A DNA stretch of 61,730 nt from Candidatus Omnitrophota bacterium. GTDB lineage: Bacteria; Omnitrophota; Omnitrophia; Omnitrophales; Aquincolibacteriaceae. The stretch spans positions 1 through 61,730 of the forward strand of contig JBDRCT010000021.1 in assembly GCA_043821445.1 (NCBI GenBank). Direction: 5' to 3'. Under the pieces are notes generated by a model. That model worked only from the letters and a program-made list of their open reading frames with translations. It was not told the origin of the DNA and made no database searches. A program made the position numbers and the translations under genes. The first letter of the stretch is position 1, and every line of letters starts with the position of its first letter. This document shows, in pieces, positions 3,337 to 60,500 of the stretch.

Positions 3337-3339
3337 ATT

Positions 3340-5315: not shown

Positions 5316-5372
5316 GAATCCCGAATAAGATCCTTCGCCTTTTTTAGGGCTCAGGATGACGTGAAAACCACG

Positions 5373-8553: not shown

Positions 8554-8612
8554 TATAAAATCTCTCCCAGCTGATAGCTGTTAGGCCCAGGCCGGAAGTT
8601 ACCGACCATAGG

Positions 8613-9191: not shown

Positions 9192-9256
9192 TTTTCCTCT
9201 TCAAGCCTCGAATGGAAGAGTACCACCTTCCGCAAGGCGGGAACCGGGATTTCCGG

Positions 9257-9598: not shown

Positions 9599-9652
9599 GC
9601 GTCCCCGTGAGCCGATAAACTTTAGCCCCTAGCTGTGAACTATCAGCAAGGA

Positions 9653-9946
9653 TTAATCTTCCAACTTGATCGCGACTTTCTCTTTTGAAGCGGCTGTCCC
9701 CTGGTTTCCAGGCGCCGTCTTTCTTGCTGCGAAGAGCATCCAGAACGCGAGCAATAAAACGATCACAGCACCTATGGCGCTTGCCTCGGGAGAGATCGAC
9801 TTGTCCCCCACGATGATGGGAACCTTCAACACCCACCGCACCAGATGAATTTCGGCAGCCACGATAAAAACGATCCCCGCAACATTCAACGCGATTTTTT
9901 GCATGCCCCCTCCTCCTGTTTTTTGAAAGATACCAGGCCTACACAC
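9653..9946 (-). CDS. Small two-TM membrane protein, hypothetical
   Basis: Two hydrophobic helices (IALNVAGIVFIVAAEI and AIGAVIVLLLAFWMLF). The likely start is the ATG at 9904 (MQKIAL). No family recognised. Confidence 0.4.
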   Translation of the reverse strand: MCRPGIFQKTGGGGMQKIALNVAGIVFIVAAEIHLVRWVLKVPIIVGDKSISPEASAIGAVIVLLLAFWMLFAARKTAPGNQGTAASKEKVAIKLED

Positions 9947-10109
9947 CGCAGAGGGATTTTACCACGAAATTCTGACGCCCGCCTCTATCTTCGATTCCTT
10001 TACTGACCGGGAAAACCGGACAAAGGTTTGGGCGTTGCCTTAAGACGAACTTTTCCCGGATCTTCTTCTTAAGCCCGGCTAGATGCTCACTCAAAAGATC
10101 TTCGTGATG

Positions 10110-10982: not shown

Positions 10983-11061
10983 AAGTGGCGAACGCCCGTT
11001 TCTATTTTCCCGGGAAACGGATATCGGATGGTGGATGGAGCAGGCAATTTATCGCCATCCG

Positions 11062-31300: not shown

Positions 31301-34300
31301 CTATGCGGCTTTGCCGACTGCGGATTGGGCGAGGTATTGCTGCACGACGGCGCCGAGGATAGAAAGTGAGCCATCTGCATTGGCTTGGAACATTCCCCCG
31401 ATCCCGAAAAAGGCTTCGAGTTGTGTCTTGAGCCATGCCGCCGTCACCGGACCGTCTTCTTTTTTACGCTCCGCGATTAGCTCCGCCATATGAAGGAGCG
31501 TCACGGCAAGGAGAAGTTCCAGGTGATCCCGCATCAGTACGTCATCAGGCGTGTTGCCCGCTTTAAAAGCCACGGAAAGAGGACGGAACCCGAAATCGAC
31601 CATGGAAATGGCCGCCTTCTCCGCCGCCGCATCAAACCCCAGGGGAACCTGCGCATTGGAACCCAGGACCGTTAAGGTGCCTTTCACGGACTTCGGATCG
31701 AGCGGGTGTTCTCTATAAAGACCGGCGGACGCCCTGAGTTCCGGGGTATTCAAGAGCGCGGAATCTGCGATCAATTCTACTTTTCTCCGGCCTGCATAAG
31801 TTTTCAAAACTTGCGCAAAGCGGGACAGGAACGGTTGGTTGGTCTTTTCATCCATCATCAGAGCAACTGAAATACCGGCTTCTTTGGAATCCGCCGGCCT
31901 TGCGGCCCATTTCCGGAAAATCTCCTCTTGGTATTCCTTGATGCGGTCATAAAGTTTCCCGGCTTGAACGGATCTTTGAGCCATTTGTTCTTCCGCCGCT
32001 GTTTTCAACACTTGGATCAACGCTGGCAAGTCTTTCCGTGCTAATTCATAGACAGCGAGAACTTCCGACGTATCCAAGACGACACCCTTCCGTGACGGCT
32101 CCAGCACATTCGCAAGTTTTTCGACCACGAGCGGGACAAGCTGCACCTTTTGAGCGCGAACCTCGCTTCTCCCCGGAACTACAGGTTTGAATAATTTGCT
32201 AAGCGTTTCCACGACTTGATTTTTCCTGACCACCGCGATCCCCAATTGATGGGCCAGATCATTCCGGTTATCAATGTCCTCGCGGGTCGCCATGACGATC
32301 GATATCTCCGGTTTGATCGCTTGGACCTTCCGAATCAGTTCGGCGCCGCTCATTTCCGGCATATGGGCATCCGTCACAACCGCATCCACATCCCTTTTCC
32401 CTAATATTTCCAAGGCTGTTTTCCCGTCGGCGACAGATAAGACCTCGGCTCCCGCTCTTTCAAGAGAACTTTGTATATTCGCCCGGTCCGCAGGATCATC
32501 ATCCACATGCAAGATCACCCGGCCTTTCAGCATTTCCGTTGTCCCGCTTCTTGTTTCGGATCGCTTTTCTTGCGGCACCGCGACCGGGAGCACCTGTCGG
32601 AAATGACGAAGAATCCCCTCTTCACCGGCCTGGGAACGCACCCGCCCATCAACCGATCGGACAAACTTGGCGGCATCTTCAGCCTTCAAACTCCAATAGA
32701 TGCTATTTTCTCCGGGTTCTTTATTGAGCCCGTAAGGACGCAAGGCATCATAGAACCGTTCGGCATCAGGATCTTGCTTTCGGGATGCAAAACGAATCGC
32801 CCCGCGGGTCCTTGCGTCGCTTTGGCTCAGCAAGACTGCCAGCTGGATCAGCCGGGTCCCGACATATTTGAGATTCCTTGCCACGCCCGACGTTCTCTGA
32901 TTATCATCCTGGGCGAGGACATTACCGATCTCCAAAAAGACTTCTTCTCCGGATTGTTTTACTGAAAAAATGAAATGTCCTTCCACGGTCCCTTCGCCAT
33001 CTTTCAGAGCAGCTTCCAGGATCGCGATACCGTCATCGACCTGCTTCTTTTCCCTTGAAAATTCATGCGGCAGGCCTTCATAAAAATAGGGGGCTTCTTC
33101 GATGGGAAGGATCCGGGCGCTCACCGGAACCTTTTGCCCATCCGCCGCTTTAAGAACAAAAGTTTCGTAATGAAAACCAGTCGAGATCCTGCTTTCTGGC
33201 TCAGAGCTCTGATACAGCTCCCGGATTGTACTTTGCGTACCGTTCGCCGCATTAATGGCTGCGGCCCGCATTTCGGAACGAATACCCGTTGCCGCCGCGG
33301 ATACCCGACGAAGAATCACGATCTTGGCTTTGTGAGGTTCGTCACTAACCTCATCGAGAACCTCAAACCCCGCATTCTCGTAATCCTCCTTCGTCACGGG
33401 AAAATCAAGCGTATCCAGGACTTCGTGAATACTGATTCCTCCGGAATTCGTTAAAGCGGCCAGATTAGCCAGCATTCGCCGCCCCAATTCCCGATGCCTA
33501 GCTTGTTTTATTCCCGGAACCAAATCTGTCTCATCGTACTCCCTAAACTGTCCGTCGAAAGTCACATCATCCAAAACATCAAGAACCTGACGACTGAAAG
33601 TCACGTCGTATTTTCCTGGAAGACTTCGCGGCAAATCCAGAATCGATCCCAGAAACACACTCAACCCTTCCCTCTTTCCGAAAGACACCATCTTCGGAGC
33701 AATCTCCAATCCGTCACAACTCATTCCCAATTCTCGCAACGCCATAAGAAAATATCCCTCACGGCTCCCGATCTCCAGCATGCGCTTGGATGACAATGGG
33801 CCCGCATATTTTTTCAACATGCTAAGCAGGGTAGCATATGCCACAGCATTCCCCAGCTCGGCATCGCTTTCTTCAGTTGCGAAATTCAATGTTTCCTTCA
33901 GCTTTTCTTCAATTTGCATAAGCCGTTTAGCGATCTCGTATTGATTTAAAGAAAGCCGGTCGATCTCCGCCAAACCTCGCATTTCGGAACGTTGCTCTTC
34001 CTCAGAGGTTATCTGCCCCATTTCACGATCAAGACTAAAACTCCCGGAAATATCGAGAACATCTGTTCCTGCGTTCACTATTTTGATCGTGGTGCCTTCC
34101 CCCTTGATCCAAAAATCGATCTGTTCCAGGCCCCGGGAGTACGGCCGGGCATGAATGTCCTTGAATTCGTCTTCCTGCGACGGTTCTCCGACATAAACCG
34201 TTTTTCCGCTAACGAGGGTCCTCCCTATTTGCCGGCCGGCCGGGTTAAATTCAAGAACAACATATTTTTGGTCGATGCCGCGCTCAATGCGGAATTGCAT

Positions 34301-37300
34301 CCCGTCCTTACCCCGCACCGAAATATGGATAACGTTTCCGGCTCCGGGACGCAGGTAAAAGGTTTCTTCATTGATTCCGTGATTCGAATCAGGAATTTCT
34401 ACCTTCCTGGAGGAAACTCTCGCCTCTGACCGTACCCCAGGTACAGCCGGAGCTAGGGATTGGCCGCCAAGGTTCTGCAGAATAACGTTAACCTCTCCAT
34501 AGCCCGTCTGACGAAGTGCTTCTGTCAATTCTGCATCACCCTCCAAAGCATCCCGGACATTGAATCCAAATTCCTGAAGGACTTTTACCAATTCTTTTTT
34601 GCGGGGATGATAACGAAAATCCGCATCGGGCCAGTAATGGTCGTCCACGATCCAAAACCCGTTTTCCTTGACCCGGACCTGATCGATAAAATGATCATAA
34701 AAATGCCCCAGGCTTTGTCCGCCATTCTGAAAATAGGCATCGAATTCTCTTCCCATGATCTTTGTCAGCTGTGGGTTCCCGGTCGACTGAAACATGCCCG
34801 GCTCCGTCAAATTTCCGGATCTGACGAAATAAAAGCGTACGTTCCTGTTTTTTCCCGCAGGAAAAGGTTTCTCGAATTCGATGAACAGGATCCCGTTCTC
34901 GTTCGTTCCCCAAGACATCCGGTCAACACCCATGGACCTCAGCGCAGCCCATAACGACAAGGGCAAGCTGACTCCGTAAAGTTCATCTTCCCGGGTAAAA
35001 CCTCGAGTGGCTTTCGTGCGAACAAGGTCGGCCGATTGCTCCGCCAGGTCCGCCACAGAATGAATGGCCGTCTCTTTGGAAAAATCCCCTTTGAACCACC
35101 GGTCGACCCGTTCGACGTCTTCTTTCATAACTCCCTTACTGTCGACCATGACCACCTCGTCCGCGCCCGTGGTCACAAGAACATTCGGCAAATCAATGCC
35201 GGCACCAAAATAAAGGACGCTGTACGGATCACCCTCTGTAATGCCAGACTTTATAAGATTAACTTTTTCACGGATCCGCGAGGCGCGGGAAAATCGTTCG
35301 AACGACATAGACGGCTGAACTTGTTCTTCCGCCACCCCTATCCCTTTTTTAGCTCCCGGAAAAACTTGCTCATACTTCGCTTCTTTTTTTTGCGCCTCGA
35401 CACTCAATTGGAAAGTGTCATCCTCCACGGAGGCGTCATATCCTTTTTCCATCCATACTTTTTTAATGGAAAATCCGGCTTTTTCCGCGACTTTTGCAAG
35501 GAATGTCTTTTTGAAAAGTTCCGCCAGGGACGTCAAACCATCGTTCTGTTCCATAGTTTCCTGATACCGGTACAGCAAAGGAAGGATATCCACGAACAGA
35601 TCTTCTTCATCATCAAGATCCATTCCTTCCGGTAATCCGTCCAGTAAAGACTCGAACTCCTCCAAAAGCGTGTCTGCCTGTGGCAGTTTTTTCAATTGCT
35701 CCACAGCCATACGGGACATTTCAACCAAGGCTGTGGAATTGGTCAGAGGTAAGAACCAGAGAGAAGTCCCCGGATCGAGGCTCTTCAGAAAACCGGTGCG
35801 GATCCCCTGTCCACGATCTACATGGTCCTCGATATGCATATCCGTCAAGATAAGCCTGTGTCCCTGCCATCCTTCCCCAAACGGCGTTCCGGGGAACGGC
35901 GCAAGGGCCATCCATCCTACCGAGCGAGTTCCATTTTTATAAATTTCAAAAAAATGCACAGTTATATCTGCTCCTGGGAAAAGCCCATAGCGTTGGGGAA
36001 TAAGACTGCCCGTAAAAACAAAATTGTAGAGAGCTTGATTATTCCCCGTCACTTGGATCGCTTCGATCTTTTTTATGAGCGCTTCATCCCGCATTTCGGA
36101 GCGGGCTGCATCAAGTCCAGCCTCGGGATACATTTGATGAAGTCCGAAATCGGCTACAATGGCCCGAAGATCTTCCCCGGCTTTGACATCCCCTTCGTAC
36201 CTGACTAACCTCTCTAGAAGCACTGCCGCCTCTTCAAACACCGGATCAATCCTTCGCAGATCCTCAATGACCTGTACCAGGGGAGACGACTCGTGAAAAA
36301 CCTCCTCCGGGTAAGCCAACTGAGCCCAGAATTCATCCGCAAACTTAACCTGATCCTCCCGGCCTATCTTGACACGTTCAATATCCTCGGCAACCTGATC
36401 GTCATACGAAGATTTATTTTTGAGAAAAAATTCCCGCAACACCTTCGGCCCGTTCGCCGATCTGAGGAACGCAACATAGCCTTTTTTCAACGTCTCCCTA
36501 TCCGCCGGATTGGCTTTAACGCGCAGTGCCCAATGAGCCCTCTCATGGCGGAGCACCCACTCCAATTCCGGCTGGCGCACTGTATCATCGGAAACCTGAA
36601 CAGCGGTTGTCCCAATAAATCTGCTTAGCAGATCATCGGGTGTGGACGGCTCCCTTCGCTGGGTCCACCGTGCCAACCCATTCTTGAGTCGTTCGGCCTC
36701 TTTATGCGGTAGTTTTTCCAATAACAATTTTCCTAGCCTATAAAATAAAATTGACAAGCCTTGCGCTCCGGTTTCCAGATTGCTCGCTCCTGCATCTTTT
36801 GCGTGCCAGAATGCCGCTACATTCCCACCATTCCGCCCCGTTCGAAACAGGTGAACAATGTTTCGTTCTCTGCTATTATCCGCCTTGATCGGATCGCCAA
36901 AATTTAACACCGTTTCCCGAAGATCCCGATCAGCGGCGATCCTTTGGAGAAGGGTCATATAGACAAAGAATAAACGGTCAACGACCATCAGGTCTGGTGC
37001 CATCATCTTCCACGCCCCCGGCAGCACGACACGGACAGGTAACGAAATACGATTAGCGCTTCGCAGCTGCCCGCCTGCATCCCGCATTTCAGAACGACCA
37101 GCGAACGGCAGAGAACCTCCCCGCAATGCGGGCTGGTCAAAGGGAATGGCAATCGGAACGCTTTCATTTTGTGATCCGTCACCGAAAAGGTCACTGGGAA
37201 AATTGAATGGGCGAAACTGCACGCCTTCCTCAAGTAAAGTCTGCTGTTGCGTCTGGAATATCCTGTGTTCGATCTGCGGTGTACTCCCTTGAACCAAAAG

Positions 37301-40300
37301 AGTGGCCGCTTCGAGCGGAAGCATCGCTGTCCGGACAGCATTGATCTTTCTATCGATCGTGGCCAACCGGGGGCCAAAAACCCGGGCCGAATCATCCGAC
37401 ATGAAACGTACCCAATCAGCCAGATTCGTACTCTTATTATCGGTGAATTGTCGTAAGATCAATTCCCGCGGGACCATGGCACCGTTGACTTTCTGCAGAA
37501 TCATGAGCTTCAAAACAGGAAATTCCTTTGTCCTTCCGGTAGGGTACCTGACCCCCAGGATATAAAGGCCTCCTTCATCTAGTTTCTCGGTAGACTGCCT
37601 GACAATATCCGCGACTTCATCGGGCCTGTAAAACTGCATGACATTGAATAAAATGATGACCTTAACCCTCAGGGGCCTTCCCCCTTTGTCCGCAAAATCA
37701 AAACCAAGAAGACGCTGGTCCGCTTTCTTCAGTACGATCTTGTCGGAAGGATGAAGTGTGATCGCAACACCGCTCGGTTCCTTCGGGTCGACAGCGTAAA
37801 TATACGGCGCCGGAAATGCCTCGTGAAGGTCCAGAGCACCGTAACCGGTGCTCGTCCCAAGATCCACGATGGCGGTTTGCTCCGTCAGTTCACTCGCCGG
37901 AAGATAAAGATTGCCCTCTCCCTTGATCCATTGGATAATTGGCGCATACCGGCCGGGCAAATTTAATGTCTCGATTTCCGCAATCTTGTCTTGTAATTCT
38001 CTTTCGCTTAAGGACCCCACGACAGGTTTTTCCTCCCGTGATTCGGACCGTTGACCTGCAGAAGATGTGAAAACGGAATAGGAATTCTTGAACCTTGGCT
38101 GATCGATCCTTGCCGAAGGAAAACCAAACGCCGCCAGCACGCCTCCCTCCGGCTTTGGAGACGTTCCTTCCCATGGTTTATCGATCGTCCGTGCGACCCA
38201 CCACCCCTTGCGCGCAAAAAAACGTTCGGGAATATAGTCCACCATAAAGCTTAGAGAATCTCCCCATCGAGGGCGGGTCCCGTCATCCTGTTGCCCATCA
38301 AGGATCACTTCCAAACCCTTCTCAAAACTTCTCACCGTCATGATGACCGATGTATTGCCTTTGTCCCGCATCGATTCCAAAGTTCTCTCAACCCCCCGGA
38401 CGAGCTGCTCGACATCCGAAAGCACATTGCTTAAAGGATCGATCCACGTCACCAAACCACTGCGTTCGCTTTCACGGTAAATGAGGTCGATGATCCGGTC
38501 CATATCCCTGACCGAAACCCTGTAACTTTGTTCGCCCAGGCGCTTGCCGTAGATCTCAGGAGAAACAAAACTGAAAGAAGATCCTGTTGCCGATCGCTTT
38601 AACGGCGGAGAGAATGAAGGAATGTCTGTCAAAACGAGGTCATAGATAGACCGGGGAGCGTCTTTGAACATCCGGTACGTTTCTTTATGAGGAGCGATGC
38701 CGCCATCGCGGACCAATGCCCTCAATCTCGACTGCTCGACCGGGGAATCCAAGAGAACATCGACGATATGGTCTTCATATCCCGTCAAAAAATTCGGCGT
38801 ATAAACCCCCGAAATGATCACCAGCCGCTTGCCTTGCGTGAGAAGCGCATCCAGATCATCCTTAAAAAAATCCAACTTGAACGGTGTCTCATGGGACCAA
38901 CTGCCCAAATAATCGTCTGTTTCCATAAAAGCAATGTCTTCCGGACCGTATTCCCCCACCCCCTGACTTTGAAGAAGTTTGGCGATCTCGGTCTTGCCGT
39001 TACCCGAAGCACCCACAAGGATCAGGATCTGGTAATCCTGTCCGTTCCTTCTCTCCGCCAATTTTTCGCCGATAGGTTCCATGACCTTTGCCCGGAATTC
39101 GGGATCCACCGCATCGGACGAACGAATCTCAGAACGCAACCGGGCCATCGCTTCCTTGACCAGAGCCGCCCGGTCCATGCCGACCTCCTGGTCCTCCACC
39201 AATCTCTTAAATGTTCCATAACCATACTGGTGGACCGAAGGGGTGAAAAACACGACGTGTTCATAAGGCGCTTCGATTGCCAAAAGGTCATGGATCGTTC
39301 CCGGCTGAACGAACGCGGCATCGCCCGGCCGGAGATACAGTATCTCGGGGCGATAATGACCCGTTGGATCTTTGATAAAATACACGAGCGCAGCCGCGCC
39401 TCGGGTGACCACATAGGTCTCGACCAGCTCCCAGTTCCCGTTCAAAATAGGATGTTCATGCAGATTTTCGGCGGTCCTGAGATCATGAAAAGAAAATACC
39501 CCTGAATGTTCGGGATATTCGACGCGGGAAACCCCAACAATAGGGGGGAACCGACTCCGGGGAAAACGCTGGGTGGTTGAATCCGTGATCCAGCCCATCT
39601 CACCTTCGACGCCGTTCTTGAGGTCGTACCAATTTTTCCTGTCCCGGTGCCGGTAGACCACCACACCGCCTTTTTCCCAAGCTTTTCCGGTAACATTTTT
39701 CCCGGAATCTTCTTCCCGCCACTCATACCAGGCCGGAGATTTGTCCAGCGTGATCACCACGATATCTCCCCGGGTGACCGCCACGGAAGCCGTTGTGTGA
39801 TGGCTCATTCCAATCACGCCGGGTTCGGAAAGCTTAAAAGACTCGCCTTCTGTCGTCACGATCGCCTCAGCGCCCGCCGGAACGACCACCTGGGTTTCGT
39901 GTTCAAAAACATTTGTTCTTTTTAAAAATTCTTTCGCTGTCGCCCCTTGATACATAACCGTCCGGGTCTTGCTCGCCTCGCCCACAAAATCGTCCACATG
40001 ATAACCGCCATCCGCATGAGGCGTAAGCAGCTCCTTCCCCGTTGACGTCAGCCGCACCACCCCCGGGCCGGGTTGTGAGACGGTGACGTCCCGCACTTCC
40101 GCCCGATTTGGAGAATCAGGACGGATCCGTCCTTCGCTTTGCGAAGGCGGATCGGAACGGCGATTTTCTGTCTCCTGCAGATTTGTAGCAGGTGGAAATG
40201 CTTTCTTTAAAAATTCTTCGGTCAATGCCATAAATTCAGACTCGCCGATACCCGCGGACCCTGTCCTGTCTGCCTCTGCAAACGCGCGCTCCGCATCGGC

Positions 40301-43300
40301 CACGAGCCCTGGATCCCGCAACAGAAGCCGCAAATACGCTTCGCCGAAATAGGGGCGCCGCACCGCATAGCTCAAAGAACCCGAAACGGGAACCGGCAAG
40401 TTCGCGATTTTATGGACCATGGCTTGAAAAAAACGATTGGGGTAGTCACGCCAATCGGCAAACAACTGCCGGGCACCTTCTTCGCCGTCAAAAGACTTCA
40501 CACTATCAACGCTCGTGTCGATCATCTGCATTAACGGCCCATAATTGTCCGTTATATTGGAGCTACGAGTGCGGTTTCTTTTCGTAACCCACAGGGCACG
40601 AAGATTCGAAGCCATATTCTCCATGAGATAACGCAACACAATATCATCAAGACCTTCCCGGCTTTCTTTCTGGAAAAGCTCCTGGTAGGAGGCCTCCATC
40701 AGATCATGATCCGCCCAGACCGGAAGAGGCCCGTAGGACTCGCTGACTAACCCGGCCAAACGGTTCGTGTCGAAAGACATCCGAACGGAGTACCAAGTCT
40801 GTTGCCACTTCGTTGCTATAAGTTCAGGGAGTGTGAGAGCATTAAAAAGTCTGGAAGAGTAAACCGTATCCGCCAAGAGTTGGGCCCCTTCCCGCCGAAG
40901 CATCGCGTCCATACCTTTTGCAAAAGACGCTTCCCTGCCCGTTGCGCCGACCCCACCGCCCACACGGGAGGCAGTACCGGTGACCTTTTTATAATCTGCG
41001 CCCGGGATGTACACCATTTTCCTATCGAGTCCGGCCAGAGCATCCGGAGTCACTACGCTTGTAAGAAACGACGCCGCTCCGACACCCTTAAACTCAATCG
41101 TCGCGGCCACTTTGAGGCGAACTTTGCCTTGTCCGGCCAGACGTTTGAGGATCATTCCCGCATTATTTCGTGTCACTTTTTCACCAGCAAGTTCACTGAT
41201 CTCATCGAATGTCGAGAGAATTCGGATGCCGATTCCTTCTTCCACATAGGGCACGACCCAAGGACCCGGCAGGGCAAAAACACGGTTTCCCGTAACCAGC
41301 ATTTTGACCCGTACAGGTTCTCCCGAAGCATTGAATACTTTTTTTAACCCGGCAAATTTCAGTTCTTGTTCCGATAAAACGCTCCCATTGGGATGGTAGA
41401 TCCCATCTCCCGCGATCGGGATGTAGCGCTCGTCGAACCATAAGAGATTTGATTCGTGAGCATCTATCTTTTCGTATAATTCAGCCTCTATGACGCGGAT
41501 CGGCATCATTTCAAAAGGATGCTGCTGCGCCAGGGGATGCTTCCATAGATAGGAAGAGACCATGTGACCGTTCAGAGGATTGATCCCAAGACCGTTTATG
41601 GGATTTTTTTCTAAAATATTCAAACGGCGATTAAAATCCGGCAAACTATCTGGGGTAAACCTCAAAAATCCCTCATCCAATAATCTCAAACCCTCGGGAG
41701 TGTGATCCTCCCGGATCTCGGAGCGAGGTCGTGTCAATAAGGCACCGGCTTTGACATCCATGGCAAAGGTCGCGTCCGGATGTCCTTGCAAGAAGGACGC
41801 GGACACTTCGGAACTCGCCGGCTCCTGTGTGGCTTTTTTGACTGCATCCGCTTTATTTTCTCCAAAAGCCAGGACCGCGATCTTCGCCGCCCTCCGGAAA
41901 GTTTCCGGGCCGATCGTGAGCGCCTGCAAAGGCATTTCCTTGATGCGCGAAAAATCACGCATGTTATCAATGATCGTCGGGACGGCCAGCTCAACGCGCC
42001 GCGTTCGCATGGCCGAAGGTTTTTCCTGTGACAGGACGACCTGGACCGGTCTTCCCAAGGACCGTTCCACCTGCGCTTTGATCTCAGCGAGCTGTTCTTT
42101 CCTTTCATTCGTGATCTCATCCACATAAAAGATCACCTTCTGCCCAAGCAATCCCCGGATCAGTCCGTCCAAGTCCCCGAGATCCTCCGGACCCCACGAA
42201 TCCTTTTTCATCGAAGCCTTCAGAGTCCCCTGAAGTTCCTCGCGAAATTCATTGCTTGTGCGAATGTGGAAATGGTTCGCCAAAGCCATGGTGACGGCTT
42301 GATCAAAATCGACGTCTTGCTCAAGAAGGAATTCGTTGAAATCGGCGAATTTCTTCTCCCATTCGCGCACTTGATCTCCGGACAATTTTTTTCGTATAAG
42401 ATCATTGCCGATAATAATGATCGGTTCATTAAAAGCGATGTGCCCGTCGCGGCCGATACCGCCGAAGCCAAGATCGATACGTCCCGGAAAAGAATTTTCA
42501 TAGCGCCGGCATTCTGCTTCAAAATCTTCCGCATTCCCGTTCAGGAAATGAATGTTCGCGTCCTTAAAGCCAAATTTACGGAGATGCTTGAACAACTTGT
42601 CTTCCATGAACGCACGAAAACTATGGATGTCTTCGGCCCAAACAGGCCCCTTCGCCGTCGGGACAAATCTTTTCATCAAGGATCCGACCACGGTGCTGAC
42701 CGCGGAAGACAAAAAGCCCGCCTGCTTAACCGCTATTGCCGGCACTAGCTTTTTCATCGCCGCACCGGGATAATATTCATCCATGTTGAATGTGTGAAGG
42801 CGGGAAAGATCGATCCGCTCGCTTGCGACGATCCTGATGAACGCATCGTACAATTCGATGGGCGTGCTCCCTGTCGGCAGAATGTATGTCGTATCCCTAT
42901 CGTACCGATTATTGTCCAGAATCGTGTCGGCCATAAGACGGGCGTACTGCTCCACGGCCCGCCGTGTATCACCGTACTCTTCGATGAACAAACCCTGTGA
43001 CGTTTTAAATGCCGCCACCCGGGCCTCGGAGCGGCGTTGGCTTGAGGATCTCCCCGGCACAATGTGGGATTTCACTGTACGCCCTCGGATCTTTTCCGCC
43101 ATGGCTCTTGCCAGCACAGCACCGATTTCTTGCTGGAGTGCAACTCCGTGAAGGTCCCCCCATTTCAAGACCCGCACCAGTTCCTGGGAAGTCTGTTGGG
43201 AACTCTCCAGGTTCGGGAAGAAGGAGACCATCCCTTCAAGAACGCCTCTTGTCTCCGGCGACAGGCCTGAAAGAAGATCACTGCCCAGGATAAGATTAAA

Positions 43301-48211: not shown

Positions 48212-48470
48212 AAGATATGTGACTTTTTATACTCCAAAAGTTAGGCTCCAATCCCCTATTCTTGTCTCTACAGAAACTTTGCCATAGGAACTAAGATATT
48301 TCAAGAGCCTTAAAGTATTTATTTGGATGTCTTTGACTATATTTTGCTATAAAAAGATAGTTTTGCTATTTATTGCTAATATCAATAATGCAAACGAAGT
48401 GGCTTTTTGATTTTCAAAGAGAGCCATCTCGCCCGTTCTTTTACAGTCCCGAAGACCGGGTATCGGGATT
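48212..48470 (-). promoter_or_regulatory. AT-rich inter-giant spacer, presumed promoter/leader of giant ORF1
   Basis: Markedly AT-rich compared with flanking coding DNA. TATAAA (minus sense, 48226-48231) lies 14 nt upstream of the ATG. TTTTGCTAT is directly repeated. No clear Shine-Dalgarno sequence. Confidence 0.3.
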
Positions 48471-48507
48471 AAAAACAAAAAAGCCATCGCCGTTTCCAAC
48501 GATGGCT
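48471..48507 (-). terminator. Rho-independent terminator downstream of giant ORF2
   Basis: Minus-sense AGCCATCG-TTGGAAACGG-CGATGGCT followed by TTTTTTGTTTTT. Lies 31 nt after the ORF2 stop codon. Confidence 0.7.
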
Positions 48508-48537
48508 TTTTTGTCTTGAGCGTTGCCGAGCGGTACG

Positions 48538-51500: not shown

Positions 51501-54500
51501 ACCGGGTCTTTGCTTGAGGGTCCACATCTGCCACTGGTTCCAGTTTTTGGGCCGCCGCCTCCAAACGCGCGATCTTGCGTTCCAGGCTGATGATCTTCGG
51601 ATTTTTTTCCCTTGCTTCCGAGCGACGTTCTCTTGCTTGACGATTGCCATCAAGGATCTGTTGCGCCTCACCGGCCTTTCGATCGAGCCACGCCTGAGCA
51701 TGTTTCAGAATAGATTTCGAACGCGCCAGTGTTTCCGCCTTATCTTGTCCATTTCTCCAGCCCAAATAGAATCCAGGCAAAGCACCGTTAGAGACATCGG
51801 TTTTGTGATAAACCCATGCACGAACGTCCGCGTTTGCAAACTGCTTCTGGAGATAGGATTCCAAATCCAACCACAAGAGATAGCTCTGGCCAAAACTTCT
51901 CCAATTTCCATCAAAAAGGTCTGAAAGACGTTTTAGCCGGATCATTTGAAACCCCTCGACCGGCTGGTTTTGCCTCCATCTGGAATCTTTCACGTTTTTC
52001 ACTTGCAAATCTTCTTTCAAGGCGTGAATCACGGCCAAGACAGAACGCGGCCTGACCTGCTCGCCTCCGTAAATCGACATTGTCTCAGCTCTCACCTCGG
52101 AACGCTTTTCCACTTGAAGCGTTATCGATTCGAAAGGCTTACCTTCAGTAAGCGTGACCTGCAGGTCCGTACCGGACACATTGTGAGGAACATTCTTGGT
52201 CAACCAGGTTCTCGGAAGCTCGGTGACCTTTTCTCCGGAAAATCTCACTTCAAATCCATTATCCTTACTAAAAGAACCCGTTGCCTCGATGGTCAGGCCC
52301 TGGACCGTCGTCCGGACGTTGCGGAAGACTCCCTTTCTCGCCGGCATGTCAAGCTTCACGACACGGACTCTCCCCGTCAGCCTGTCTAAAACCCATAAAA
52401 CTCCTCTTCCCAAAAGAAACTTCTCCAAAATGGTACGCAGGATGTTTCCCAGCCCGGGACGGGAAAGACCGAAGTACTTCCTCACGGACGGAGGAAGATC
52501 CTTATCGGCAACGATGTAGCCCACAAAATGGGATTGGTCCTGGGAGGCTAAATTGATTTTAAGATTGACGGGTTGCACTTGCTCTTCGTGAGCTGCCGGC
52601 TGCCTTTCCTGGCGGACATAGATCTTCCCGTTATCAAAATCAATGTGCGTGACCCCGGAAAACGGATACGACCTGTTTACCCTTGCGGAATATATTTCGA
52701 GATCCCCCGGGATACCTTGGTGCATCCGGAAGACAATGGAGGGGAGGGATCTTATCCCCAGTTGATCGAGTCGCTGCCCGATCGCTTTGCTGCTCATGAA
52801 TTTCGTTGCCACTGATGCCGCAATCGTTCCTTCCGTGAAAAGGCTGCTACGGACCTCGGAACGGGCGACCATGGCCGTATTGGCAGCATTCGCCATCGAA
52901 ACGGCCTCTTGAAGCAACGTGTGGGGCGGCGCAACGATGATCTCTACTTGACTTTGACGGACAAATTCCTCGCCCGCTAATCCCGTGATGAATGGATCGA
53001 GGTTGTCCCTTTTTGCCGACGGCTCCGCCTTCCAATTGGCCGCGAGGACGAGTGTCCTTCCGTTCCCTTTGTCCCCTGTTGCGCTTATGATCCGGCCCAT
53101 CTTGGAAAAACTTTCCAATTTCAGGCTCGCGCCCCCGACCAGGAATCCGTCGATATCGGGCTGGATCGAAAGACCGCCAACATTGTCCGGCTTCGCCGAA
53201 CCGCCGTAGAGGATCCTCATATGCGCCGCGAGTTCCGGAGAGTAGGTCCTTGCAAGCCAATTCCGGATCGCTTGATGCACCTCCTGAGCCTCTGCCGGCG
53301 TAGCATTCAAACCGGTGTTGATGGCCCAGATCGGCTCATAAGCGATCATGCTCACCGCCTTTGCGACATCTTCTTGGCTCATGCCATGGAGCGCCTCTCC
53401 GAGCTGACGAAGAACAAACAAAATGTGATTTCCGGCGTCTCTTACGCTCCGGGGTTCGCCCACGCAAAGCAATTGCACCGGAGCTGCACCCTTGGCTGCC
53501 CATTGCAACTTTTCATTGATGACTTCGTCGGTATCCCCGAATTGTTCGTACGTCCTCAGAAGTTGCCCGAATGCGGGCGAACTTTTGTCGGTACCGTACA
53601 CTTCCACCATCCGGTGCCGTCGCTCGCTGTGACCGGTCAGTGATGCTGTGACACCGACCTCTTGAAGATGCTCATAATTGACCGAACCTGTCGCTGCGCC
53701 CGTTTTAAGTGAAAAATGCTGGGCAAATATCTTGATCGGCCTCGCTTCCGCCCGCGCTTCCGAGCGGGCGGGTTGGATCGCTGTAGCGAGGGCTTGCGGC
53801 ATAGCCGGAAGCGGGGCCACATGGCCGAGCGCATACTGCTGAAAATAACGGCGACTGTCCTTTGCACCCAAAAGGCCGTACACCTTGACCTGCCAGTCAT
53901 TCAAACGCTCGATCACTTCCTTTTCCGTGGCCTCCGGCATCCTTGTCAGATAAGGAAGCAACGGCGCGCAAAGGTACTTCACGAGATCTTTCAACTTGCT
54001 GCGGGCCTCTCCGGGGACATCATTACTGTCCGAAACCATCATCAGAAGAACCCTGCGACGATCTTCGGTTTTGTTGACATCAAGACCGCGTTCGGCATTT
54101 ACTACTTGAATAAAACGATCCCACTTCGGAGGCAGCATTGCGCCGGTCTTCTTATCTTTCTCCGGCTGTCCGAACTTTACAGTATTGCTTTGGATCCCTA
54201 CCGCATACGCTAAAAGATCTTTCGGCTCGATCTTCAATGCCGCAGCATAATCCTTCAATACCGGGGTCAGGCTCTCCTCGACCGGCTTCATGAACAGCAC
54301 CAAGAGATCCCACATCACATCCGCCATGGCCGGGTCTTTCTGCGCCACGGCCTCAAGAACGATGTTCTGGAGCTGTGTCGCAAGGTGCACTTCCCCCACC
54401 CGGTGTTTCTGCAGGATCGGAAATTGATCGTCCGTCAGTTTCGAGGCGCCGTGCTGCACACCCTGGACTTTCAGAAGTTTCTCGTGGATGCGGAAGACGA

Positions 54501-57500
54501 TCGTGTTCACGCGCCGGCCCGCCACCCCATGGGCCGTCCCAGTCTGATAACTGATCTTGTCCAAACCCGCGATATCCACCCCGTACTTCGCCTTAAATGC
54601 AGCATTCCGGACCGCAAGCCCTTCCTTAACGCCCGCAATGAACGCAAGCGTCCCTTCCACTTCACTCGGCTTATCGGCCAACACCTCATCATCAATATGA
54701 CGTTCCTCACCGCCGATCAAGGTGACCGTCCCGCGTGCCATCAGTCCCTTGCTCTTGAGCTCTTCATCATGCGCGCGGATCTTCACGATCTGATCCACCG
54801 TCGCGGCGATCGTATGCTTATGGATTTCGCGGTACCGTTCGATGCGGCCCTGGTCCACCCAGTTCCAAAGTTCCGGCTCCGGCATGTCATCGATCCAATG
54901 ACCGATCGATTCAAGCGTTTCCCCGGCTTCCAAACGCTTCCGGACCTCATTCATGAGCTTGGACAGACCTGTCGGGTTGTCCGGCGTGACGGATTCCGCG
55001 TACAGTTTGGACAATAAAATAGTATCCACGGCCGTGGATGGATCAAGATCGATATGATAACCGCGGGCCGTGATCATATCGCGGATCTCAGCCTCGAATT
55101 TATCAAACGCTTTCTTGCGCTTGGCAAGGTCCACGTACGGTTCGCGTTCATCCAAGGTCATCGCTTTAAACTTCTTCGCGAACGTTTCCGGATCTTCGCC
55201 GGCAGGGATCTTCGTCTTATCCAAGCCGAAAATGTCATCCAGCTTCAGCTGACGGTGGTCCGCCTGGGCGATGATCGGAACTTTCGAGCCCACGAACGCG
55301 TGCGCAATTTGCGCGGCCGCAAGGAACATCTCATTCGTTTTAAGGCCGGAATAACCTTTTTCACTCGCGGCGAGTTCCGCGATCCCGCCGGCGTTCAGCC
55401 GGTCCAGCGACTCAAAGAAAGAGATCAGTTGGATGATGCCGCCCGCGCGCATGTTGGTGGCGGGGATCACCCACACCTTATCTAGATTTGCTTTCTCACG
55501 ATAAAGCGAAGCCGCGGACATCATTTCGACACCCCGGGCATTGGTGATGGCGCTCGCGATCCAATAAGCGGCATGATTGACATCCGCATTGGGATTGTCT
55601 GTCAGTTCACGCGTTAGATCAAAAAGACGGCGATTCCCTTTCAACCCCTGCAAGATCTCAACGCCGTTTTCGTTCACACGAACAATATCCGAAAAATTCT
55701 GCAGCAGCTCACTCACCGACCCCGACAACGCCGGCATTTCCTGCATCTTCACCATCCGCACTTCGGAGCGGGCAATGGCTTCCTTCACGCTGACGAGCGA
55801 AGCGACCGGAATACCGCCTTCCTCCAAGAATTGAGGGGCGATCCCCTGCATGCTTCCAAGATAGACCTTTCTTTGAGAGACCATCGCGATGATCCCCGTA
55901 ACGGTCTGGGTCTCCGGTTGTCCAAACGGCCTCCATTCCAATACCACGGGGACCGCAGAGTTTCTGTAGGCCTCAAGGGAGGTTTCATGGAACGAATCCC
56001 TCAGAAGCGCATAATAGTCCGTCCAAAAAACAAGATTGGTCGTGATGTTGGTCTGGGCCCCGAAGAGCTGCTCGTGTCCCCGCAAAGCCAGCACGGTCCC
56101 GGTAGCGTTATCGATCGTAGAAAACACAGAGACGCTCTTTCCTGCCGGCAATACGACACCGTTCGCAGACACACGGATCCCGTGGGATTCCAACTCACTT
56201 TGGTGCGCCTTGAGATATTCCTGATCGATCAGTCCTGCCAGGTATTTTTGGATCGCGGTCACCTGCTCTGCGGCGGTCCTTGCTTCCGAACGGTGAAAAG
56301 ACACTTGAACGCCGGTCCCATTGGGCTGCATTTGGGCTGTCGCCGAGATCCTGATCGGCCGGAGGATCCCATTCGTCCCGTTGTTCCGGCGAAGGACCAT
56401 CTGAAAGGCACTGAGTTGTTCGGACTGTAACCCCAAATGGAAGAATACGCGATCCTCATGGTTGCGTCTCTTCAAAAGAAAACCCACAAGCTGCCAAGGT
56501 TTGTCCGGAAATTTGGCCACGACGGCGGACGGAACCTCAAGATCCTGGGGCAGCTGATGTTCGTGGATCGTTTCAGAGAGAACTTCCTTCAGAGCAAATC
56601 TCTGGACCGCATCGGGGATCGAAACGACACCCCACTCCAAATGTGACGCCGAGACGCGCACCGTGGGACGTCCCGGGAACTGTTGCAACGAGCTTTCTTG
56701 GTCACCCGTTTGTTCTTTTTTCTCGTTCAAACGCTCGAGCTCCTCCATGGCAAGGTCCAGGTTCAGACTAACATTCCGAATTTCTGAACGGTATGCGGCA
56801 AATTCGATCGATCCTGTCCACGTAAAGGATTCTTGAGTCGTCGTTCCACGATCAGCACCGAAAGCTGGATATTTTCGGGCAGAAGCTGGGGTCCGTGTGG
56901 TCATTTGCCAATCGATCGCAACCTCTTCCCCCTGAGAAACGAACTGGATACCCGGATCCTCACCTTGTTCGAGCGCCATTTCAATAAAAGTGAGTTTGTC
57001 TTCGGGAACCGAACGCCAATCGACACGGATGGAGGGCCCTTTGCTGAGATAAGTGCCCCCTTGGCTTCCTACGGTCGTCGGTAGAACCCCGACGTTTTCC
57101 TGGGCATACTGTATGAGCAATTCATTGATCCTTTTCACCGCCTGAGGGAAACGGCCAAGTTTTTGGTGGGTCTGCCATGCTCTGAAAGCCACAAAACCCG
57201 TAACCGAAAGAGCGATTCCGCCTGCGACTGCCGGTAACCACGACCGCGTCTCTGAACGACCTGCCTTGGCATTCCTGACCTTCTGGGAAGGATGAGGACG
57301 TTTTGTGTTGGGTCCGTGAAGCGCCGTAATTTTTTTATGATCTTTGGTCCTTTGCACATTTTTCGTTGCCGCTTTTGCCCTCTCTCTCGCAACTTGCTCC
57401 TTCTGATTCGCTTGTTGGCGCTGGCTATCCGTATTACGAATTTCCGAACGGACAATTCCTTGTCGAGCGTTGCTAAAAACTACATTAAATCGAAAATCAT

Positions 57501-60500
57501 GTGCCGCTCGTAAACCGACTAAATAGGCTTCTATCCCCGACGCACCTTGTCCTTCAAAGGAAAGAACCATGGGGGGATATCCCGGCTTCATCACTTCCCA
57601 CCGAAACGTTCTTAACGTCTTTAAACCGATGCTGGGAAATATTTTCCGGTCCAAAACTTGCGGTTGTGCGTCATGAGCCTGTTGGAAGGTTTCGACTATA
57701 GTTTGATCTTCCCGCACCGTTAACTTTACCATTTTAATTTGATTTGCTTCAACCCCAGGCAACGGTACCGGCAATCCATATCTACGCTGCTCAAGGATTA
57801 ACTCTTGGCCGGAATTGGAAATCTTTATCCGTTCGCGAATGCCATCATCAAAACCCACATTGGGACCAAAAACGAGTTGCTTTTCCGAATTTTCAACTTG
57901 GAATAGGGCCCTCAAAAAACCAACGAGTTTTTCCGCCCCATCTTGCTGGCTAAAGTCAAACGTGATAGCGCCGCCGCGCATCTCCGAGCGTTTCCGAGCA
58001 TCGGACGAAGACAACAACCCAATTTGCGCATCTAAGATACCCTCCACAACCGCGTCCGGGGCCATCGCCCCCATAGTAAACATCCCTTTTGCTCCGCGAA
58101 GCGCCGCCGCTTGAACCGTGCGAACAGTAGAATGAAATTTCGCTATCTCCGCGCGAAGGGCTTTCATAGCCTCCGGATTAGCAATTGCGGTTTCATTGAC
58201 GCGGTCAAGAACAGCCTGAAGTGCCCCTAATTGCTTTCGGCCCTCTTCTTCGGTTATGGTCGGATCGCTTATGAGGAGCCCACCCACTCTTATCTTCCAC
58301 GGTTCGGTTATTGCTTGACGTGCTTCCGAACGGCCAGCGACCTGCAAAGAACTGAGAATGTCAATTGCTTGCTGAAGATCAGGAGGAAGGTGATCTGTTC
58401 TGACCTTTGTTGCAAGAAATGCACTGACGCTTCGAATTGTAGGAATAGCTTTATCGAATTCTGCCAGCCGGATTTGTTCTATGGCATACGAGAGCGATCG
58501 ACTGTAAGAGCTTGAAACGGAATCCACATCCCAGATCAAATCGCGCACTCTGTCTACTAATTCTATAGCCTTGTCTATTTTTGCCCCCGCACTTTTTCCC
58601 AGCCTTTCGAAACGGCGAAGTACCGCTTCACCCAATTGATTCATTTCTGCCGCTGAATTTCCAGAATAGAACTCTCGAAAAAAAGCCTGCAAGGCCTCTA
58701 AGGCTTCAGGACGTGACATAACCCCTTTTTCCAGATCGATCAGAACCTTTTCGGGTTGCACCGTTCGCGCCTCTGAACGACTGGCCTTCGCATTCCTGTC
58801 CTTCTGTGACGGCTGATGGGCTTTGGTGTTGGGTCCGTGAAGTGCCGGAATGATCGCATGATCCCTGGTTTTTGGCACATTCTTCGTTATCGCCTCCGCC
58901 CTCCTGATCCGGGCCTGTTCTCGCTCAAACGTTTTTTTACGCTGACTATCCGTATCACGAACTTCCGAACGGCCGTTTCGGGTTCCGCTGTTTGCATTAT
59001 CGAGCCGGCTATCAATCGGAGCAATTGAAGACCGATTCCCGTCAATAATATGCCCAGATCTGTCCCGTTGCGGAGTCACTTTGTTCCCTCTTCTGTCAAC
59101 AAGTTCTCCGTTTCTCCCCACGCTAACAGTTGTTCGATATCCCCTATCATTCGTAATCTCAAAACTCCGTGCCTCCGAACGGCCCGCCTTGGCATTCCTT
59201 ACCTTCTGTGACGAATGAGACTGTTTTGTGTTGGGTCCATGAGTCGCCGGGATGATCGTATGATCTTTGGGCCTTAGTACATTTCTCGTCGCCGCCATTG
59301 CGCTTTCGCGTCTGCGCTGTTGTTCCAAGGCGGCTTCGCGATCGACTGGGCCTCTAGTGGGAGCAGAAGGGACTACATTAAGTTTCTTAAGAGCGGAACC
59401 AGAGAACGCCAAAGAAAGAGCATCACGAATCATGGCCGGTTGTGTCAAAATTAAACCGGTAATAACATCACCAACTTTGGCCAGAAAATTGCGAACTTCC
59501 GACCGCGAAAAAACGGTTTCCATCGCGGTGGGATCCGAACCAAGGACGGCGCTCATCTGCGAAGTTTCGAATTCACGGGCACCAAGAATGGAACGCAAAT
59601 AAACTTCATGGTCGCGCTTGGTGACTTCGGTGATGCGCGGCGTGATCTGAAGATAAGAACAGTTTTTGGCGGCAGCGAGTTTTTTCAGACCATCGGTGTG
59701 GAACCCTCCGGTAACGATCACGGCGCGGTTTTCTTTTAGTTCACCCATTTTTTGGAGAGCGTTGGTAAACATGTGCTTTTCACGGACAACTGCAGTGGAG
59801 TAGAAATTCATGGCCTGCTTAAAAACACCTTGGATTTTCGGCTCAACGCTCAAAGCGCAAAGCGCAACGTCCTTTTTTGGATTTTCTCGTTGTGCGTTGA
59901 CCGTTGTACGTTGCGCGAGGTTCAATTCTTCATACTCACCTCTTGTTAACTCTAACTGGAAAAGTTTTCTAAGAAGACGCAGTTGACGGGCCTGGGCGAG
60001 ATATGCTTTTTCATCCGGAATTTGGGCCAAGGTGTCCTGGATGCGCTCTTGTAACCGCAAGGTCTCTGTATGGAGCCCTTTGCCTTCCAGTTCCTGCATC
60101 AGGATGATGTGTTGGGCATAAAGCGTCCAGCTCGGCCATGATTTCATGGAAAAGTCTTTGGGGAGTTTTTCGAACGCAAGATCGAAAGCGCGGCGCAACG
60201 GGGAGTACTCGCCTGCGGCACGGGACTCGGGACTCGGGACTCGGGACTCGCGCAGAAGCACTTTAAAACTACTGACGACGTCTGCTGAGATCCCCCGTTT
60301 TTCTAGTACCTTGATGAAAGCTTCCGCTTCCTGGTGCGCCTTTTCATGATCGATCTTGGAACCGATCGCCTGCAAGCGTTCATAACGGACAAGAAAAGGA
60401 TATTCGTTCTGATGGAAAGCATCGGCAAGGTCCAGCTTCAGGTGTTCTTTGCTCGCTTGGGCGAGGACTTTGAGCCATCCTTCAAAAGAAAGCGTCCCTG

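Follow-up and report, generated by a model that had tools for sequence, protein, structure and literature searches.

Giant proteins of Omnitrophota and comparable systems

Giant open reading frames (ORFs), whose products combine a long chain, a signal peptide and scattered enzyme domains, are known from the phylum Omnitrophota, under the names 'Archaeovorins' and 'multi-enzyme metabolic cluster' class (Nielsen and Lui, 2026, bioRxiv 10.64898/2026.06.07.730766). Domains of triosephosphate isomerase (TPI or TIM), PGI and aldolase have been reported in such proteins and cleavage has been suspected, but 'information about cleavage points' was lacking, and structure prediction unit by unit was thereby blocked (West-Roberts et al., 2023, bioRxiv 10.1101/2023.11.21.568195). 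Whether these are single giant proteins or are cut is an acknowledged puzzle. Here we describe a stretch of 61,730 nucleotides from a Candidatus Omnitrophota bacterium (assembly GCA_043821445.1, contig JBDRCT010000021.1, positions 1 to 61,730; the window, hereafter), with two giant ORFs, ORF1 and ORF2, in which a five-residue motif, R-S-E-x-R (RSExR), marks the junctions of protein-sized modules, and we propose this motif as the first concrete candidate for the cut points of the giant proteins of Omnitrophota. Both ORFs belong to the known class: they come from the same phylum and share with the published giants the TPI, PGI, aldolase, methyltransferase and receiver domains amid unannotated sequence, while being, at 4,220 and 5,636 amino acids (aa), smaller than the search criterion of ≥30,000 aa used by West-Roberts et al. 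Neither a motif nor cleavage is mentioned by Nielsen and Lui or by Seymour et al. (2023, PMC10066038), the motif, the TIKI-like N-terminal head and the AA- or SA-ending tail discussed below are not described in these two papers or in West-Roberts et al., and a targeted literature search returned no published description of an RSExR junction motif. The first-pass annotation of the window, while recognizing the motif, saw neither the membership in this class nor the conserved head and tail, the choice of S, A, T or P at residue 2, or the codon bias.

As to systems outside the phylum, that annotation had likened the ORFs to gingipain/HagA of Porphyromonas, bacterial multi-domain precursors processed at Arg or Lys at domain junctions. 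This comparison turns out to be an analogy only, as neither ORF possesses a C25 peptidase or a C-terminal domain of the type IX secretion system, nor do they possess haemagglutinin/adhesin repeats, and, unlike the basic P1 of these precursors, the window motif is a five-residue pattern with an invariant Glu. In CdiA and Rhs proteins, short peptides (VENN and PxxxxDPxGL, respectively) border a conserved part and swappable modules, mark the breakpoint of recombination and, in the case of Rhs, are also where cleavage occurs; unlike the window ORFs, with their 15-19 junctions, these proteins have a single junction each, with different motifs, and serve toxin delivery. By architecture, the MARTX toxins and the viral polyproteins are the closer analogues. 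MARTX are bacterial giants whose N- and C-terminal regions are conserved and enclose variable, recombining effector modules, which are released as separate proteins by cutting in unstructured inter-module linkers; the MARTX protease cuts after Leu, whereas the window junction is a strict five-residue motif. Also unlike MARTX, the window ORFs show no RTX repeats and no C80 cysteine protease domain in Pfam/NCBIfam searches, have no notable tandem repeats, begin with a Sec-type signal-anchor instead of relying on type 1 secretion, and carry housekeeping-like cargo, not toxins. Membership in either MARTX or gingipain/HagA is therefore excluded, as the defining domains are missing. One MARTX effector, RRSP, is itself a sequence-specific endopeptidase of the TIKI family (PMC6254334). 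Viral polyproteins, processed by leader or 3C-like proteases, also encode many mature proteins in one ORF, with a short linker consensus at each junction and the protease often N-terminal in the same chain; the Omnitrophota system differs in being cellular and chromosomal, in having several paralogues per genome and in its candidate protease belonging to another fold family.

The junction motif in the window

The two giant ORFs are as follows:

31301..48211, minus strand: giant ORF1, 5636 aa; between head and tail, 15 cargo modules, of which one has 7 aa; 16 junction motifs
48538..61200, minus strand: giant ORF2, 4220 aa; head, 17 cargo modules and tail; 19 junction motifs (one overlapping pair)

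Split at the motif, they give 34 modules of 63-668 aa in the window. The junctions of ORF1 are:

46178..46192, minus strand: RSEVR, aa 674; head/cargo boundary, position conserved in 41/60 loci
44975..44989, minus strand: RSEMR, aa 1075
44954..44968, minus strand: RSEAR, aa 1082; 7 aa beyond the preceding motif
43925..43939, minus strand: RSEAR, aa 1425
43019..43033, minus strand: RSEAR, aa 1727
41711..41725, minus strand: RSEIR, aa 2163
40091..40105, minus strand: RAEVR, aa 2703; variant
39122..39136, minus strand: RSEIR, aa 3026
38036..38050, minus strand: RSESR, aa 3388; start of a homology block with related locus L003
37082..37096, minus strand: RSEMR, aa 3706; homology block boundary
36089..36103, minus strand: RSEMR, aa 4037; homology block boundary, five-module insertion relative to L003
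34418..34432, minus strand: RSEAR, aa 4594
33977..33991, minus strand: RSEMR, aa 4741
33266..33280, minus strand: RSEMR, aa 4978
32549..32563, minus strand: RSETR, aa 5217
32156..32170, minus strand: RSEVR, aa 5348; codons AGA AGC GAG GTT CGC; cargo/tail boundary

Those of ORF2 are:

59491..59505, minus strand: RSEVR, aa 566; head/cargo boundary
59167..59181, minus strand: RSEAR, aa 674
58957..58971, minus strand: RSEVR, aa 744
58765..58779, minus strand: RSEAR, aa 808
58318..58332, minus strand: RSEAR, aa 957
57976..57990, minus strand: RSEMR, aa 1071
57436..57450, minus strand: RSEIR, aa 1251
57244..57258, minus strand: RSETR, aa 1315; hydrophobic helix 6 aa on
56776..56790, minus strand: RSEIR, aa 1471
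56278..56292, minus strand: RSEAR, aa 1637
55756..55770, minus strand: RSEVR, aa 1811
53752..53766, minus strand: RSEAR, aa 2479
53740..53754, minus strand: RAEAR, aa 2483; overlaps the preceding RSEAR, giving RSEARAEAR
52849..52863, minus strand: RSEVR, aa 2780
52090..52104, minus strand: RSEVR, aa 3033
51610..51624, minus strand: RSEAR, aa 3193
51421..51435, minus strand: RSEAR, aa 3256; low confidence in the structure model
51196..51210, minus strand: RSEVR, aa 3331; narrow confidence dip (model residues 75-79) ahead of PGI
49351..49365, minus strand: RSEVR, aa 3946; low-confidence stretch (model residues 664-720) between PGI and tail

A regular-expression search of the translations thus returns RSExR 15 times in ORF1 and 18 times in ORF2, precisely where the first-pass annotation had placed these 33 copies, and it also returns the RAEVR that had been regarded as degenerate but is a genuine variant, RAExR being enriched 10-11x family-wide. 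The site list as first drawn up was exact for these 34 and had overlooked the overlapping RAEAR at 53740-53754. The estimate that well below one copy would be expected by chance holds as well: composition predicts 0.15 sites for ORF1 and 0.08 for ORF2 (~0.23 in total), and 500 residue shuffles per ORF gave means of 0.16 and 0.08, respectively, with a maximum of 2 sites. Elsewhere in the window there is, as had been reported, a single in-frame copy, RSETR in TyrRS (30928-30942), within the conserved GDPSG.. region; the few further matches in the six frames are out of frame. The statement that the preceding residue is usually G, A or S is true for 16 of the 34 window sites, and family-wide A, S, G and P are enriched before the motif merely 1.5 to 2.5x. 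One out-of-frame RSENR (51416-51430, minus strand) overlaps the in-frame RSEAR at 51421-51435, and this we judge to be a coincidence because N is not a residue that the family uses at x. Two of the motifs of ORF1 are only 7 residues apart (44954-44989, minus strand: RSEMRKTRSEAR), so that, were both cut, a heptapeptide 'module' would result. Overlapping doubles (RSEARAEAR, RPELRAEMR) recur elsewhere in the family.

A large family of head-cargo-tail ORFs

The motif is part of an architecture that is widespread in the phylum. A profile of the head, the conserved N-terminal module, matches 9,451 representatives of 50%-identity clusters at E ≤ 1e-3, of which 6,127 remain when the cutoff is lowered to E ≤ 1e-30; among the 150 best listed matches the head is almost always N-terminal, in proteins of up to ~8,000 aa. 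Scanning one genome per GTDB species reveals over 500 head copies, several per genome, one example being assembly JBAYGD01, with six copies across five contigs. This head-cargo-tail family is very large and Omnitrophota-specific, and is itself undescribed within the known giant ORFs. The motif was counted in two data sets, 67 long ORFs from GTDB Omnitrophota loci (204,858 aa) and 142 representatives of no more than 50% mutual identity (463,112 aa). In the former, RSExR is observed 285 times versus 5.5 expected, RAExR 87 versus 7.8, RPExR 20 versus 3.8 and RTExR 17 versus 3.7; in the latter, the respective numbers are 703 versus 11.5, 166 versus 15.9, 40 versus 7.5 and 24 versus 7.5. The enrichment of RSExR is thus 50 to 60x in both sets, and at least one site is present in 140 of the 142 representatives. 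The consensus is R-[S/A/T/P]-E-[L/V/M/A/T/S/I]-R, with R1, E3 and R5 essentially invariant, and the spacing between motifs (142 representatives) has a median of 300 aa and an interquartile range of 166-503, close to the size of ordinary bacterial proteins. By comparison, 71,248 aa of ordinary proteins contain no RSExR, and none is found in those ORFs of at least 700 aa, in the same loci, that are neither led by a head nor a frameshift continuation of a head-led ORF.

When 143 head-led proteins are split at the motif and the pieces are clustered, the head is the first module in all 143, and two related tail families (63 and 19 modules) almost always occupy the last position. What lies in between is highly variable: 518 of 936 modules are singletons, without a relative among the modules compared, and no module family besides head and tail occurs in more than 4 of the 143 proteins.

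The motif at module borders

Relatives of the window ORFs show where the modules end. ORF1 shares with a 3,701-aa ORF of locus L003 blocks of ~79% identity whose ends coincide with motif sites (ORF1 3387-3710 with L003 1618-1941; 3716-4041 with 3091-3422; 5347-5636 with 3417-3701), and the five extra modules of ORF1 (1,311 aa) sit exactly between two motif copies. The expectation of the first-pass annotation that homologues would keep the motif while the modules vary is borne out also by PGI-containing relatives (72%, 46% and 44% identity), which retain the motif on both sides of PGI. Its statement that the motif lies at the edges of recognizable domains proved true for the receiver domain (REC), the methyltransferase, the NagB-like enzyme and PGI; it is true for TIM as well, though only because the TIM barrel is circularly permuted. 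A full-length PGI profile (positions 6-540 of 544) matches ORF2 aa 3344-3912, starting ~3 residues past RSEVR, and one module is taken up by REC (131 aa) and another by the methyltransferase (237 aa). A homology search with ORF1 aa 4700-5400, from methyltransferase to REC, returned 8 distant REC matches only and was unusable as a multi-module alignment.

In accord with the placement in disordered linkers that had been anticipated, the motif falls in low-confidence linkers of the structure models, both for the PGI region and for the head. In an AlphaFold model of ORF2 3256-4220, the predicted local distance difference test (pLDDT) score drops under 50 in the three stretches that hold the motifs (model residues 1-5, 75-79 and 664-720), while PGI itself is modelled with high confidence, and in the model of the head it is below 50 for residues 651-673, immediately before the first motif. 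The motif flanks are enriched in Pro, Ser and Ala. The motif is thus extremely enriched, is restricted to head-led ORFs, lies in linkers at module boundaries and delimits the mosaicism between relatives, and its role as a recognition site that joins protein-sized modules is well supported. The practical consequence is that a simple searchable motif marks module borders in thousands of ORFs, so that giant ORFs can be divided into units of ~300 aa for annotation and structure prediction.

Head and tail

The conserved terminal modules in the window are:

46193..48211, minus strand: ORF1 head module, aa 1-673; the signal-anchor helix (aa 7-31) precedes a TIKI/ChaN-like domain that contains a long helical insert
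59506..61200, minus strand: ORF2 head module, aa 1-565; 26% identical to its paralogue, the ORF1 head
31304..32170, minus strand: ORF1 tail module, aa 5348-5636; main conserved tail family, ending ...GKAA (31304-31315)
48541..49365, minus strand: ORF2 tail module, aa 3946-4220; divergent tail, ending ...GASA (48541-48552)

Each giant ORF opens with a hydrophobic signal-anchor helix, behind which lies a domain of ~550-650 aa that is homologous between the two. Among 143 heads, H86, E114, E175, R457 and H488 are 99-100% conserved, and so is G485-G486-F487. In 41 of 60 loci the first junction follows 150-250 aa past this GGFH motif of the head, even with heads that are only 31-55% identical. Part of the ORF2 head (aa 353-503), and of this head only, resembles Pfam family PF04187 (ChaN/Tiki) below threshold (E = 0.0039, 17.6 bits versus a gathering score of 27.7). 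A profile search of the head against PDB sequences gave no match, and Foldseek against PDB gave weak matches to the TIKI-superfamily structures 3b55 and 2rad (Bcr135) and 5t09 (HopBA1), none significant (E = 0.6-4, TM-score <0.25); the head model, which includes a large helical insert, averages a pLDDT of 73.9. A 2His/2Glu site has been described for both Bcr135 and RRSP, and in RRSP it belongs to a proven sequence-specific endopeptidase (PMC6254334). With its invariant His/Glu/Glu/His/Arg set and weak TIKI similarity, the head, a TIKI/ChaN/erythromycin-esterase-like domain, thus carries a candidate hydrolase signature. In most family members the signal-anchor helix ends in a conserved F-x-x-T-[N/S] (in the window, 48121-48211 and 61110-61200, minus strand), an end that is unusual for a generic signal peptide and that suggests a specific interaction or sorting step.

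The tail is ~280 aa long, and its last two residues are Ala-Ala or Ser-Ala for 63 of 65 tail modules and for 118 of 142 representatives, an end reminiscent of that of the ssrA tag or of the C-termini bound by PDZ proteases. The tail itself as a protease can be ruled out, as no invariant catalytic residues are present in the alignment.

Codon usage inside the motif

That codons vary and the constraint must therefore act on the peptide is correct as the main signal, since the codons do differ between sites, to the point of AGA AGC GAG GTT CGC; this first conclusion needs to be amended in that a synonymous bias exists inside the motif. Over ~400 sites from the window and the related loci (L003-L081), the codon for R1 is CGY in 78%, versus an overall 40% and versus 47% where the same context occurs outside a motif, and AGR in 6% versus 24%; the Ser codon is AGY in 7% versus 31-33%, with TCN, mostly TCC, preferred; and the x codon ends in G at 58% of sites versus 30%. 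For Glu and the last Arg, codon usage is close to background. The bias is not accounted for by effects of local context. For Ser, common descent of the junction copies may be the explanation, while the biases at Arg and x leave room, as minor rivals to proteolysis, for a mechanism at the level of translation or a part in the exchange of cassettes. Two specific candidates were rejected. One is an RNA hairpin with a 4-bp stem, CCGC/GCGG, across the motif, which the base preferences fit, but for which there is no covariation and no Rfam family in the window. Another is internal initiation at the x codon: GCN, ACN and TCN are common at this position, no Shine-Dalgarno sequence is found at a usable distance, and the bias toward G-ending codons is also seen in Ala and Ser codons and is absent from Leu codons.

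Proposed processing of a polyprotein and rival explanations

The first-pass annotation proposed that the motif is the recognition site of an endoprotease that processes a polyprotein. The part concerning modules joined by a recognition site is the one supported above; as to the rest, we infer the cleavage, the scissile bond, the identity of the protease and the cellular side on which it acts. Endoproteolysis is the most economical mechanism, and on balance we think that the motif probably is the cut site of a site-specific endoprotease in a cellular polyprotein. The giant ORF would then be an operon written as one reading frame, whose translation product would be cut by a sequence-specific endoprotease, at the motif, into separate proteins, most plausibly after the second Arg (P5-P1 = R-S-E-x-R, P1' = S/A/T), and the head domain, which strictly co-occurs with the motif, would be the foremost candidate for this enzyme. 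The position behind the motif is in line with such a bond: L, F, Y and W are found there at 0.26x background (44 versus 166, p = 1e-33), Pro at 0.5x, though Pro is enriched around the site, and S, A, T and G at 1.86x, all of which fits a P1' position and a new N-terminus behind the second Arg, while cutting before the motif or behind Glu fits less well because an N-terminal Arg or Leu would result. Signal-like starts are also about 2-fold more frequent in modules than at random positions (4.4% versus 2.2%, p = 1.7e-4). One example is ORF1 aa 1082, where RSEAR is directly followed by the signal-like DNRLQGSSRRYFLGL...VLAQS; another is L019, where a Tat (twin-arginine translocation) lipoprotein signal, RRDFLGMML...PGLTGC, directly follows RSEMR; further examples are the AxA-type signals behind the motif in L033 and a MarC-type membrane protein behind the motif in L076. 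The spacing of R.E.R and the overlapping copies suggest an extended strand with R, E and R on one face, the usual pose of a substrate in a protease cleft. As Ala, Thr and Pro substitute for Ser, the motif is neither a site of self-cleavage with Ser as the nucleophile nor a phosphosite, and both possibilities were ruled out. A signal-peptidase-like AxA site before the motif was likewise rejected, small residues at -1 and -3 being only 1.2 to 2.1x enriched.

A number of observations weigh against such processing, among them some that concern topology. The N-terminal side of the head is positively charged in all members, from which the positive-inside rule predicts an outward-facing head at the cytoplasmic membrane. 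The cargo is mostly made up of enzymes that are typical of the cytoplasm, carry no signals (as holds for 95% of modules) and need cytoplasmic cofactors, and the polarity of the signal peptides behind some motifs implies separation on the cytoplasmic side. The head as the protease and processing in the cytoplasm thus do not fit easily together: either the whole chain is exported and is cut outside by the head, in which case the location or destination of the cargo would be unexpected, or another, cytoplasmic factor cuts, and the head serves some other purpose. In 80 loci, no gene, such as one for a protease, is found to be a conserved neighbour of the giant ORFs, and no recurrent protease module is found among the cargo, either by Pfam/NCBIfam or by module clustering of the 143 proteins. 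The assignment of the head to TIKI relies on a sub-threshold Pfam score (17.6 versus 27.7 bits) and Foldseek E-values above 0.1, the 4.4% of modules opening with a signal-like segment are but a small minority, and a purely proteolytic model does not predict that synonymous codons should be biased, as they are, across the motif's first half.

Among the alternatives, an uncleaved linker motif, a docking or sorting tag for a common partner (head, scaffold, chaperone or secretion machine) in a multi-enzyme chain that stays whole, we consider unlikely while deserving of attention, as a strictly conserved five-residue motif in disordered linkers implies a common binder, not necessarily hydrolysis, the head and the motif strictly co-occur, and the published views are of membrane-anchored giant assemblies. 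However, signal, Tat and lipoprotein peptides and whole membrane proteins right behind the motif make little sense in mid-chain, the avoidance of N-degron residues and Pro is specific to the following position, tandem and overlapping copies and the 7-aa 'module' resemble redundant cut sites, and the obligate oligomers TIM and PGI would need to assemble inside giant chains. Separation during translation without a protease, through a 2A-like 'stop-carry-on' or programmed peptidyl-tRNA hydrolysis dependent on the nascent chain or the codons, would resolve the topology problem, because it would precede export of the head, and it would agree with the strongly non-random synonymous codons for R1, Ser and x and with the negative outcome of the search for a protease gene in cis or nearby. 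We nevertheless regard it as very improbable: we know of no bacterial precedent, nothing is conserved upstream of the five residues, while known nascent-chain effectors use longer tracts, the codons of strongest bias, R1 and S2, would already be out of the A and P sites of the ribosome when the last Arg is decoded, and the depletion of AGY can also be explained by common descent of TCN under strong purifying selection. Re-initiation is excluded, as there is no requirement for Met or a start codon and no Shine-Dalgarno sequence after the motif.

Even slighter is the chance that the motif is a scar of recombination, a cassette boundary that enables in-frame module swaps and has no role in the protein. 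Gain and loss of modules between relatives exactly at the motif, the concentration of codon-level conservation in its 5' half (CGY TCN) and the fact that the alternatives at residue 2 are exactly those with NCN codons are what such a scar might leave, but nine constrained bases in 15 nt are insufficient for homologous recombination, Glu and the last Arg are free at the wobble position and yet both residues are invariant, fully recoded versions exist (AGA AGC GAG ...), the invariance of R, E and R, the hydrophobic x and the P1'-like next position point to selection on the peptide, and there are neither repeats or inverted repeats flanking the sites nor base-pair covariation. As to chance, compositional bias, an artefact of assembly or gene calling, or an unusual genetic code, the probability of any of these is practically nil: shuffled sequences reach at most 2 sites, the genes next to the giant ORFs are normal in size and end in standard stops, and the occurrence of the same architecture in hundreds of independent assemblies refutes this reading.

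Returning to endoproteolysis, a broader scenario may be offered tentatively, in which Omnitrophota would encode a substantial part of their ordinary proteome as several head-cargo-tail polyproteins per genome, cut at R-S-E-x-R, most likely by the TIKI-like head. With the same reserve, the cargo in this scenario would comprise core glycolytic enzymes, regulators and exported proteins, and modules would be gained and lost, like cassettes, at the motif. The motif directs attention to one specific candidate enzyme, the conserved head. If cleavage is true, bacteria would have here a cellular polyprotein system of unusual size, and its new protease specificity might be of use as a tool. If the polyprotein reading is true, it would represent a cellular counterpart of the viral strategy, with a single reading frame replacing an operon. 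In one survey, G6P isomerase was found in only 67 of 176 genomes, and with PGI and TPI buried in giant ORFs, surveys based on genes may be mistaken about whether, or where, such enzymes are present.

Cargo modules and genomic surroundings

Pfam and NCBIfam recognize PGI, triosephosphate isomerase and a class II aldolase-like region in ORF2, and a NagB-like enzyme, an S-adenosylmethionine (SAM) methyltransferase and a receiver domain in ORF1, while the bulk of the sequence of both ORFs has no match in these databases. The cargo modules of note are:

49366..51210, minus strand: PGI module, ORF2 aa 3331-3945
52864..53766, minus strand: circularly permuted triosephosphate isomerase module, ORF2 aa 2479-2779
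53767..55770, minus strand: 668-aa module with class II aldolase-like region, ORF2
41726..43033, minus strand: NagB (glucosamine-6-P deaminase)-like module with insertions, ORF1 aa 1727-2162
33281..33991, minus strand: SAM methyltransferase module, ORF1 aa 4741-4977, 237 aa
32171..32563, minus strand: receiver (REC) module, ORF1 aa 5217-5347, 131 aa
43940..44968, minus strand: module opening with a Tat/Sec-like signal right behind the motif, RSEAR followed by DNRLQGSSRRYFLGLCLKSFAFASVAGLPSVVLAQS

The TIM module (ORF2 aa 2479-2779) runs from beta3 to alpha8 (GHSERR, YEPIWAINTG), then, through a short linker, from beta1 to alpha2 (LAANWK, IIVAPP); it retains the full set of catalytic residues, its new termini are the two RSExR motifs, and its NWK is the only one in ORF2. 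No further permuted TIM modules were found among the related loci examined. Three short modules of ORF2, aa 566-673, 744-807 and 1251-1314 (59182-59505, 58780-58971 and 57259-57450, minus strand), are 57-63% identical, small and basic, and each ends in ...HGPNTK..SQK(V/D)RNAKA(G/S) immediately before the motif.

A strong intrinsic terminator directly follows the ORF2 stop (48470-48510, minus strand: AAAAAGCCATCG...CGATGGCTTTTTTGTTTTT), and an AT-rich promoter region of ~250 nt lies between it and the start of ORF1, so that the two giant ORFs are separate transcription units. The genes around them have ordinary housekeeping functions, normal sizes and standard stops. One group (6521-12543, minus strand) is a cluster for menaquinone (futalosine-type) and prenyl-decarboxylase functions, with an MqnC-like radical SAM protein, a VitK2_biosynth gene, a UbiX-like flavoprotein, UbiA and UbiD; this cluster is followed by genes for a YugP-like Zn peptidase, RluD, Lgt and LspA. 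An exact search for ORF2 in public assemblies returned no record. Isolate fen_1321 (79% identity) is the nearest relative, the 79%-identical relative PLLJ01000035 having come from fen/peat sites, and homologues of the N-terminal region come from metagenome-assembled genomes of Candidatus Omnitrophota. In another relative, L001 (GCA_964499085.1, contig CAZCJV010000007.1, 46-8857), a counterpart of ORF1 is absent and the motif-bearing ORF is broken into three consecutive ORFs in different frames, through frameshifts or sequencing errors, while the downstream ABC-transporter, YggS and ProC genes are syntenic with the window at 23.6-30 kb.

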